From a virus (taxonomy: Duplodnaviria > Heunggongvirae > Uroviricota > Caudoviricetes), in the IMG/VR virus record IMGVR_UViG_2703718817_000009, positions 1 to 44,978 of that record: a stretch of DNA of 44,978 nt. One strand, given 5' to 3'. Shown piece by piece: positions 6,001 to 9,000 of the stretch. Every line of letters starts with the position of its first letter. Position 1 is the first letter of the stretch. Position numbers: made by a program.

Positions 6001-9000
6001 AGGTACTGCGAGGTGGTCTTGCCGTTAATGGTGACATCCTTCTCCGTCACCCAGTTACCGTTACGCTCAAGCTGAATCAGCAGCCGGACAGAAGAGGGAT
6101 TACGGTCACCCTTTGAGGTGGTCTCCACCAGTGACTGCACCCCGAAGGTGACCCGCAGACGGTCAATGTTCGCTGACGTGATGGTGCGCGTCACCGGCTT
6201 TGCCTTCGTCACCTCCACGCCCAGTGCGGTTTCTGCCCCGGAGGACTCAAAGCCTTCCGGCGGTGTCTGCTCCTGCTCCCCGGCACGCCAGACGGCGGTC
6301 ACACCGTGTATCACGGGATTACCGTCCGTGTCCGTCAGCGGGGTTTTGTTCACCAGAATACTCTGCAGTCCCTTCACCGGACCTTCCACCGGTCCCTCAC
6401 CAATGGCATCAATCACGCTCATCATCTGCGTGGATTTGAGATTGTCCTTCGCCTCACGCGGTGTGTGCCCCTTGCCGCCCCCTTTACCCACTCTGTCCCC
6501 CTCTCCTGTCTGATGTCTGATGTCTGAATCTGTTTATGCCCAAAAACAACAGGCACCCCGGAGGGTGCCTGTGTCATGACGGAATAAAATTTCTGAAATT
6601 CTTCACATTTTTGCAAAATCCTGGTGGCGCTTATAATTTCTCTGCGTTACCGTTTTTTGCCGTGACATAATAATTCCTTACAGTTAATCTTCGTATCTCT
6701 TCCCGCAGCTACAGAGCACTGCGGGATTTTTTTTATTTTCATCCCCGCCCGATAACCACCACTTTCCCGTCACCGCCCTCATCACGGGTACTGATGTCCT
6801 GGGATATCCGTCGTGAACCAACCAGCATTTCACCGTAAGGCACCGGCATCGGGTTACCCTGGGCAATCATGTTGTCCAGTGACGAAAAATACGTGTTCCG
6901 TTTACCATTATCTGTTGTCGTGGCAGACGGTGTTTTCGCCCTGGGGGTGAGCATCTGCGTGATACCCCCCACCATCATGGCCACCCCAAGATTACCGATG
7001 ACAGCACCAATACCGGTCCAGCTGAACACATATCCCACAACAGCCAGAACAGCACCGGCCACCACCTGAAGAACACCGCCGTTTTTTGCCCCCTCCGTCC
7101 GGGGCACCAGATGGATAACATCCCCGTCATTCAACGGCTCACATACTCTGGAATGAAGCTCCTGTTCAGATACATCACTGCCCGCAATGCGTAACTGATA
7201 CCATCCCTCATACAGTTTCTGCCGGAATCCCGGCACCTGCAGCGACAGGGCACGGATGGCCTCCGCTGCCGTGTTCACATACAGGCTGATGCGGCGACCA
7301 AATCGTTGTAAATCCCCGTGAAGGCAGATGCGGACCAGTGGCGGTGACGCCAGACAGAATGCGTTCGTCGTTGCCATTTTTCAGAATACCTCTCCCGTTT
7401 ACTCAGTTGTTCAGGTATATGGTGAAGCAGTTCACCGTTGCCACAGTAAATGGCGGCATGATTTGGCACCGATGAACCAAAGCAGCACAGCAGGATATCG
7501 CCTGCCTGTGCACAGGACGGAGACACACGGTAAAAGCCGTTTTCCGCCAGGTTGTCCAGGTACAGGTTCTGACCGTTGCGCCACCAGTCATCCTCGCGGT
7601 GAAAATCCGGCAGCGTTATCCCCGCCAGATGGTATGCATCCCGGAACAGGGTGTAACAGTCCGTCACACCGTGTTCAAAGCGCCGTCCGGTCAGGTGCGG
7701 CACACAGCGGAACCGGTGAATTTCACCCCGGCAGACCAGCCACCAGGGCAGGGCACTCTTTATCTGCAGCCGCCGGTCCGCCTCGCTCAGCCAGGGCAGA
7801 CCACCGGGATGACTGTGGACCAGCGCCACAATCTCCCCCTGCATCTGTGCCTGCAGCCAGTCTTCCGGTGCAATACGAAAATACGCCTCCGGCTCTGCGG
7901 AGATATTCACGCAGGGCTGGTACCGCTCCCCCTCCGGGGTGCTTATCACGAAGCCGCACGACTCCGCTGGCGCACACCGCCGGGCATGCGCCAGAATCGC
8001 TGATTCAGTCTGTGTCATAAAACGGGATTTACTGCGAAAGTTTATTAATGGAAAGGAAACCGCCAAAATTGACCGCCATGCCGCGCATCTCACACCCGCG
8101 CATGCATTTACTGCATCTGTCCTTCCGGATATCCGTGGTGGGGTTGTCGAACTCATCCGCCACTGCCGGACCGTTATACCCGCATTCATCGCCCCGGTAA
8201 TCCCACATACAGGTGTTCGCCAGCATGATGCGACCGGGAAACAGCGCACCGTCCGTCTCCGTCGGTGTCGCCAGCACAAACGAGGCCGTCATGGCCGTCA
8301 GCGCTGACATCTGCTCCACCACCCAGCGGTCCGTCAGCTCCTGCTCCGGGTCTGCCTCCGGATTCCCCGCCACAAAATTCACCGCATCCAGAAAACGCGC
8401 ATACACCCGGCGGCGGACCACCGTGGCCCCCACCAGGCTCTGCAAATCCTCCGCCATCCCGGTGACAAGGCCGAAAAGATTGGACACTGTCAGCGACGGG
8501 CGGGCACTGCTGCCCTTTCCGTTCATCTCAAAGCCACTCCCCTCAATCGGGTACGCCTGATATTCACGCCCCTGCCAGGTCACCGGCTCCCCTTTTTCAT
8601 TCAGCTCATTGCAGAAAAAATACCGCTCACCGCCCTGCACCGTCAGGTCGATTTCCCAGAGCACCACCCGCGGTGACTGCTCTGACTTAACCGACTCATT
8701 CAGGCTTTCTTCGTGAATATCCTGCATCAGTTCACCACCTGCTTAAACTCCGCGCTGAACTCAACGCGCAACATCCCGACCCGCGCAGACCACCCGGCAC
8801 AGGTCACCTTTATCTGCCGGTATGCATAGGGTGGCTTCCACAAAAATGCCTTCCAGCCCCCATGCTCTGCCAGGAACGCTTCCAGATGCCGGGCCTCCTC
8901 CCGGCTCACGGAAAGCATCACCCGGTATGTTTTCAGGTCAGCATTCAGCCCTGCCGCCATACGCTGTGAGTACCCGTCACCAAAACGCACTTCACGCACC

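Follow-up and report, generated by a model that had tools for sequence, protein, structure and literature searches.

A predicted small RNA gene between tail genes I and J

The DNA analysed here (the window: all 44,978 nucleotides of IMG/VR record IMGVR_UViG_2703718817_000009) is a Shiga toxin 2 (Stx2)-converting lambdoid prophage, in which the minus-strand tail genes I and J are separated by a 247-bp spacer (6492-6738). A preliminary description, made by reading the raw sequence without tools, had noted about 250 bp of non-coding DNA at this junction and proposed that its plus strand encodes a candidate small RNA (sRNA) antisense to the tail operon. It set this arrangement against that of phage lambda, where I and J were taken to abut; in lambda the two genes in fact lie 60 bp apart (15445-15504), the one point on which the description had to be corrected, its coordinates and other details proving right. 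Here, we identify the element as a previously uncatalogued, divergent allele of an sRNA family that is known and has been detected under two names, PasB and EcOnc22-24.

The plus strand of the spacer contains the promoter reported in the preliminary description, TTGCAA (6611-6616) separated by 15 nt from TATAAT (6632-6637), which a consensus scan scores as TTTGCA-16-TATAAT with 10 of 12 positions matching. Transcription from this promoter is predicted to yield an RNA ending at an intrinsic terminator, in which CCCGCAG (6702-6708) pairs with CUGCGGG (6719-6725) ahead of eight uridines (6727-6734). With a folding energy of -14.3 kcal/mol (z = -4.0; an equally good fold in none of 200 shuffled sequences), the hairpin is as strong as had been claimed, and the RNA 3' end falls 5 nt short of the I stop codon; the consensus scan missed this terminator because it counts a 10-nt loop. 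The entire 6644-6734 segment folds into a 5' hairpin, about 34 nt of single-stranded RNA and the terminator (z = -2.6). A putative seed adjoins the 5' side of the terminator and is single-stranded in both the minimum free energy and the consensus folds. The U8 tail and a U-rich stretch before the hairpin are present, and the ARN tract is short.

The expected length of roughly 90 nt and the lack of coding capacity were both borne out, the predicted RNA being 91 nt with no conserved open reading frame, and homologous spacers do yield such an RNA (see below). We rejected the small open reading frames of the region (44 codons on the plus strand at 6536-6670, 64 on the minus strand at 6422-6616, and one of 21 on the minus strand), which are not conserved across alleles because the start codon is lost in enteropathogenic Escherichia coli (EPEC) and the indels are not multiples of three.

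Table 1. Features of the I-J junction, in window coordinates
Feature	Position	Strand	Remarks
J, host-specificity / tail tip gene	3024-6491	-	GTG start
I-J spacer	6492-6738		247 bp, between J and I
J Shine-Dalgarno	near 6497-6507	-	J start at 6491
Tandem repeat TGTCTGA x3	6507-6527		7-nt unit; between J ribosome-binding site and hairpin 1
Hairpin 1, terminator-like	6549-6572	-	10-bp stem; U-run 6539-6548; 52 nt upstream of J start
TCTGA-N6-TCACA box	6592-6607	no strand	9/10 of CRP core; candidate activator site
Sigma-70 promoter (predicted)	6610-6637	+	-35 TTTGCA/TTGCAA 6610-6616; -10 TATAAT 6632-6637
Predicted sRNA, PasB/EcOnc22-24 family, allele 'A'	6644-6734	+	91 nt, start 7 nt after -10
UUCCUU	6674-6679	+	in single-stranded stretch
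Putative seed	6683-6701	+	conserved GUUAAUCUUC 6683-6692, then allele-specific CU-rich 6694-6701
Rho-independent terminator and Hfq-binding module (predicted)	6702-6734	+	stem, then U8
I, tail assembly gene	6739-7377	-	stop codon 6739-6741

Homology to PasB and EcOnc22-24

Family membership was assessed with a covariance model (R1) built from eight aligned alleles, from which the window type was excluded. The model matches the window at 6644-6733(+) over its full length (positions 1-96 of 96) with 69 bits and E=3e-11; no other part of the window reaches an E value under 0.1. Known members are 67-70% identical to the window RNA in pairwise comparison. The other hallmarks of the family are likewise present: an antisense location between I and J, homology in sequence and structure, a promoter with the GCGUUA motif, and a terminator with at least seven U. 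By contrast, Rfam found no family in the I-J spacer at the gathering threshold or at E<=10, returning only sub-threshold terminator look-alikes. The comparison with known prophage sRNAs suggested in the preliminary description therefore came out negative for the Rfam models of AgvB, AsxR and Esr41 and positive for the PasB/EcOnc model.

Several named sRNAs of this host group were rejected as identities. AgvB and AsxR (RF02702, RF02703) occupy a different site and their models do not match here, though they detect AgvB in Sakai controls; Esr41 (RF02676) gave no Rfam match and lies in SpLE1 / O-island 43/48; and EvrS/Esr023 sits between a regulator gene and an esterase gene.

EcOnc22, EcOnc23 and EcOnc24 were described as three paralogous orphan Hfq-binding sRNAs of the enterohaemorrhagic E. 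coli (EHEC) strain Sakai, residing in Sp15 (the Stx1 phage), Sp14 and Sp11, respectively (Tree 2014, Table S2, PMC4104026). In that study EcOnc22 gave a Northern signal of ~85 nt and was destabilised in an hfq deletion, and the Hfq peaks from CRAC (cross-linking followed by cDNA analysis) for all three RNAs lay on the strand antisense to I and J. Their targets were later listed as unknown (Sy & Tree 2021, PMC7873438). The Sakai Sp11 copy of the spacer lies between ECs_2161 (J) and ECs_2162 (I), and the reverse complement of the Northern probe shared by EcOnc22-24, GGGAGAGAACGATGAAGATTAACTGATGAGTTA (PMC4104026), maps just 5' of the spacer terminator hairpin. Peak coordinates in the 2014 paper refer to an older Sakai record, NC_002695.1, and were calibrated on AgvB1, whose old peak at 1941783-1941835(-) corresponds to an Rfam match at 1941920-1941981(-) in the current record. 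By this calibration the coordinates move by +137 to +146, and the strand convention is borne out. Once shifted, the EcOnc24 CRAC peak falls inside the predicted RNA; a position on hairpin 1, as read from unshifted coordinates, was rejected accordingly.

PasB is an 83-nt RNA encoded in prophage PP6 of EPEC strain E2348/69 (NC_011601.1, 1466343-1466261(-); Pearl Mizrahi 2021, Table S6, PMC8550237). It lies between tail assembly protein I (end 1466255) and gpJ (start 1466496), antisense to both, and its 3' end and the I stop codon are 6 nt apart; its Northern probe, AATCCCGCAGTGATCGCGGAGCT (PMC8550237), covers the terminator hairpin. Thus both published probes target the strand and position predicted for the window RNA. 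PasB depends on Hfq, its level dropping by log2 6.8 when hfq is deleted, and it is one of the most highly connected accessory sRNAs, with 37 interactions detected by RIL-seq, the sequencing of ligated RNA pairs (PMC8550237). These partners include ler, perB, bfpB, bfpI, ftsZ, hflX, galE, glk and gshA; the most abundant is a prophage intergenic region next to pasA (774 chimeras), and the intergenic region next to pasC is also a partner. A seed in the stretch before the terminator has been proposed (Zhu, Shabalina & Storz 2026 preprint, doi 10.64898/2026.05.13.724894).

The window RNA and PasB share the I-J slot, the antisense orientation and a 3' end a few nucleotides from the I stop codon, together with the GGCGCTTATAAT promoter core, a GCGUUA..UUUUUU 5' motif, a CUCC/UUCC element, an AUCUUC motif and a CCCGCAG...CUGCGGG-U7/8 terminator. 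They differ in that the window allele lacks a GUAAC insertion and most of the PasB (AAN)4 tract, reads UAUCUCUU where PasB has UUUGUCUGU in the pre-terminator seed stretch, and has TTGCAA rather than TTCACA at -35, leaving ~69% identity over the RNA. EcOnc22-24 agree with the window in spacer, strand and an identical terminator, and the J-proximal half of the spacer is nearly identical; EcOnc24 itself is ~68% identical to the window RNA in our multiple-allele comparison (alignment A3) and 75.5% in a separate pairwise alignment. At 68-69% identity to both EcOnc24 and PasB, the window RNA is therefore a divergent allele and not a near copy.

Judged by alignment and position, PasB and EcOnc22-24 are homologous RNAs of the same locus and form one family. 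We found no statement of this equivalence within the searchable literature text, including both Pas papers: the Table S6 notes give EHEC homologues for PasA and PasD and are blank for PasB (PMC8550237), and EcOnc is unmentioned in the 2026 preprint on Pas distribution (doi 10.64898/2026.05.13.724894). The question raised in the preliminary description, whether this RNA had already been described, can thus be answered in the affirmative, as a member of this family.

Alleles, tandem cassettes and distribution

The spacer occurs in 149 phage records, almost all of them from Escherichia phages that are Stx-converting or related to such phages. Megablast also places it in 799 of 5426 complete E. 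coli genomes, at a median of three copies, and with the sensitivity of blastn about a third of these genomes (1787/5426) have the sRNA segment. The window allele is rare, with only 29 records at >=95% identity; none of the 29 annotates it, and a full-text literature search for the RNA sequence found nothing. Strains O145 RM9872 and 95-3322 are examples of its carriers. A scan of contigs for the terminator pattern was uninformative on distribution because it returned only 12 chance hairpins from unrelated taxa.

Querying IMG/VR with the invariant block left of the promoter yielded 119 loci. Their sRNA regions have 41 different sequences, representing at least five allele types. All types share a fixed -10 box, GCGUUAC at +1 followed by a U-tract, an A-rich tract, CUCC or UUCC, the GUUAAUCUUC element, an allele-specific CU-rich stretch and the invariant terminator. 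The A-rich tract is (AAN)3-4 in most alleles and only AAU-AAU in the window.

Although 105 of 123 related spacers hold a single cassette, the remaining 18 hold two to four in tandem: four in L083 (7517-8436), L042, L064, L068, L069, L110, L116, L120 and L122, three in L036 and L063, and two in L020, L044, L052, L105, L108, L127 and L136. The tandem cassettes are divergent PasB-type units, each complete with upstream box, -10 box and terminator; the last one in L083 is almost identical to the window allele over its 3' half. A published BLAST-based census of pasB gave a minimum distance between copies of 28 kb, and tandem arrays therefore went undetected in it. With at least five allele types and these arrays, the diversity of the family exceeds that census.

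Comparison with Sakai Sp11 places the divergence of the window allele in its local context. Identity is 93.5% at the J 5' end and 91.5% in the J-proximal half of the spacer, and falls to 60% in the promoter, 75.5% in the sRNA and 68% in gene I, with a mosaic junction near 6610. As the sRNA allele diverges together with gene I, the pattern can be put down to ordinary phage mosaicism, and diversifying selection acting on the seed is, as such, unsupported.

Promoter, 5' end and upstream box

Taken alone, the promoter match is at chance level, with one site found against 1.1 expected per 2.5 kb of shuffled sequence. It rises above chance because its -10 position and the conservation that begins at +1 are kept across alleles: the -10 box has a constant position in every allele and cassette (TATAAT in 44, AATAAT in 43, TATCAT in 36 and CATAAT in 18), and sequence conservation starts at the predicted +1 with GCGTTAC. 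Compared with the expressed Sakai allele, which has AATAAT and a poor -35, the window promoter has the consensus TATAAT and a better -35.

Counting from the -10 box and +1 motif predicts RNAs of 91 nt in the window, 91 nt in Sakai and 98 nt in EPEC. The annotated PasB 5' end, which derives from RNA-seq coverage, lies 22 nt after the -10 box and 15 nt after the predicted +1; the equivalent position in the window is ~6659, for a 76-nt RNA. The longer form is favoured by the consensus -10 and by conservation of the +1 motif; the Northern sizes of 83-85 nt lie between the two.

Within an A/T-rich block (6583-6609), 24 nt upstream of the -10 box, lies a TCTGA-N6-TCACA box that resembles the core of a CRP site. 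Its presence in the window is not significant by itself (3 sites found versus 1.6 expected, allowing one mismatch). The box nevertheless recurs in every cassette at a fixed 24 nt before the -10 box, with constant half-sites and a variable central N6. Canonical CRP sites read TGTGA-N6-TCACA and are centred at -41.5 in class II promoters and at -61.5 or -71.5 in class I promoters. The box centre is at about -44.5 relative to the predicted start at 6644 and about -59.5 relative to a PasB-type 5' end, neither of which is canonical. PasB accumulates to higher levels in LB than in DMEM with glucose (PMC8550237), a difference that would fit the hypothesis of CRP control and for which many other explanations are possible. 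The conserved box offers a testable idea on regulation.

Mode of action and alternative explanations

We consider it likely that the window RNA is an Hfq-dependent, trans-acting sRNA that has a promoter and terminator to itself and belongs to the PasB/EcOnc22-24 family as a divergent allele. As such, it would be transcribed in the lysogen from about 6644 and gripped by Hfq via the U8 tail and terminator, perhaps also via the short AAU-AAU tract. The single-stranded region at ~6674-6701 (UUCCUU, GUUAAUCUUC and the CU-rich stretch) would then pair in trans with host and prophage mRNAs, at regions rich in purines and often resembling Shine-Dalgarno sequences, and alter how these mRNAs are translated or how stable they are. 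As alleles differ in the pre-terminator stretch, the set of targets probably differs from those of PasB and EcOnc22-24.

Several observations weigh against this reading. Family membership, location and sequence features were established here on an allele and strain represented by sequence only, and expression and Hfq binding were recorded in homologues only, to which the window RNA is just 68-70% identical and than which it has a shorter ARN tract. The targets of the family are candidates known from chimera capture. Our duplex scan of the window found no trans partner beyond shuffled controls; the best non-self duplex, at -31.4 kcal/mol, falls between the extremes given by shuffled seeds (-27.8 to -34.3). 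In 10 of 11 alleles the terminator stem does not vary, so that no base-pair covariation is available, and the consensus fold across alleles retains the terminator alone. Finally, the PasB annotation and the Northern sizes of 83-85 nt suggest a form that is shorter than the predicted 91 nt or processed at the 5' end.

The result of the duplex scan bears directly on a cis-acting role, because the sole pairing in the window stronger than shuffled controls is that of the RNA with its own antisense. The RNA is complementary over its whole length to the intercistronic I-J stretch of the late tail mRNA and could provoke RNase III cleavage, or its convergent promoter might disturb late transcription, uncoupling or damping J expression; conversely, abundant late mRNA after induction could titrate the sRNA from its trans targets. 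Its position makes the RNA antisense to the late operon, and every relative examined, arrays included, keeps this placement. Lambda OOP offers a comparison: this antisense RNA of 77 nt, which has a promoter of its own (pO) and an intrinsic terminator, directs RNase III cleavage of cII mRNA. Like the window RNA, OOP is a short phage RNA directed against an operon; it acts in cis and reaches into a coding sequence at the 3' end, whereas the window RNA is confined to the intercistronic region and has homologues with many trans partners. An OOP-type cis regulator was rejected on this ground, as 6644-6734 overlaps neither an opposite-strand coding sequence nor a ribosome-binding site, that of J being ~150 nt away. 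Moreover, the late operon is silent in the lysogens where homologues were detected, and PasB forms chimeras with 37 mostly unlinked RNAs. We therefore regard a primarily cis-acting RNA as rather unlikely, although cis and trans roles are not mutually exclusive and both are possible.

It is more doubtful still that the RNA serves mainly to sequester another small RNA, as AgvB and AsxR do. Anti-sRNAs encoded by prophages form a recognised class in this host group, and the most abundant RIL-seq partner of PasB is the non-coding prophage region near pasA, with that of pasC also captured. Most PasB partners, however, are coding sequences or 5' untranslated regions, which was a criterion for calling PasB an sRNA. 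AgvB and AsxR do resemble the window RNA as prophage small RNAs of the same pathogens that have their own promoter and terminator in a moron-like cassette, and they are Hfq-bound; but they are 51-60 nt long, are encoded downstream of pR' in the moron site and serve as sponges for GcvB and FnrS, and thus differ in length, location and architecture as well as in the absence of an Rfam match. Least plausible, and in our judgment very improbable, is a silent cassette, in which a chance promoter-like site precedes an insulating terminator or the element is a decayed copy. The chance-level promoter match would be compatible with this, as would an allele known from its sequence alone. Yet the -10 and -35 elements are better than those of an allele that is expressed, the model matches strongly over its full length, conservation sets in at the predicted +1, and the allele is 100% conserved in other genomes.

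A broader proposal, which we put forward tentatively and think less likely to be right than wrong, is that the I-J junction of lambdoid, largely Stx-converting phages is a dedicated sRNA slot. One to four PasB-type cassettes would sit there in tandem, each with an independent promoter, alike in their Hfq scaffold and CRP-like box and unlike in their seeds; the window RNA, PasB and EcOnc22-24 would represent alleles of a single regulator set that is diversifying and nutrient-responsive. If so, prophage induction would also titrate the cassette RNAs, since every cassette is antisense to the late tail mRNA.

The trans-acting reading and the family assignment leave the current understanding of prophage sRNAs unchanged. 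What they add is that an unannotated feature of an Stx2 prophage is now tied to an experimentally supported family, and that two separately named sets, EcOnc22-24 and PasB, are unified as one family at one conserved phage locus. They also indicate that a real sRNA gene can be recognised correctly from the raw sequence, without tools.

Hairpin 1 and the origin of the cassette

The second hairpin with a minus-side T-run that had been noted beside the cassette is confirmed at 6549-6572 (hairpin 1). On the minus strand it is followed by UUGUUUUUGG and has a folding energy of -24.5 kcal/mol (z = -4.6), and relatives include one compensatory C-G to U-A variant. It lies outside the sRNA and belongs to the operon strand. 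Hfq-CRAC reads in the Sakai spacer come almost entirely from one strand (~21,000-32,000 versus 100-241), so that nothing points to another Hfq-bound RNA with its end at hairpin 1. We infer that hairpin 1 is an intra-operon terminator or an RNA-stabilising hairpin that would be read through by Q-modified polymerase. The TGTCTGA repeat between hairpin 1 and the J ribosome-binding site varies from two to four copies in relatives.

The 60-bp lambda gap carries an analogue of hairpin 1, an operon-strand hairpin (CCGCC-TGCG-GGCGG) followed by TTTTG, for which we know of no described function, as well as TTCACAT...TTTTGCA remnants. Since hairpin and T-run are already present in lambda, hairpin 1 is ancestral to the I-J junction. 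The sRNA cassette, as this comparison indicates, is added DNA, a moron-like antisense insertion at the junction.

Other features of the prophage

The toxin genes lie on the minus strand, stx2A at 27622-28581 (319 aa, C-terminal ...SQSLYTTGE) and stx2B at 27341-27610; we take the encoded subunits to resemble Stx2c or Stx2d. Directly 3' of stx2B is an STnc100 (PasD-like) sRNA at 27052-27266 (-), faced by a plus-strand candidate RNA with a terminator at 26964-27052. The candidate reaches sub-threshold scores only, with 18.7 bits (E=0.11) against the PasB-family model and 22.6 bits against Rfam OmrA-B. The AsxR and AgvB models give no match at 26964-27266, a position that is that of the convergent sRNA dyads (AsxR/EcOnc27) of Sakai Stx phages. 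Three tRNA genes are located just upstream of stx2 at 28675-28923 (-). Elsewhere in the prophage, Rfam matches at gathering level mark a sok antitoxin RNA at 34288-34462 (-), a C4 antisense RNA at 35166-35249 (-) and isrK at 35275-35348 (-).

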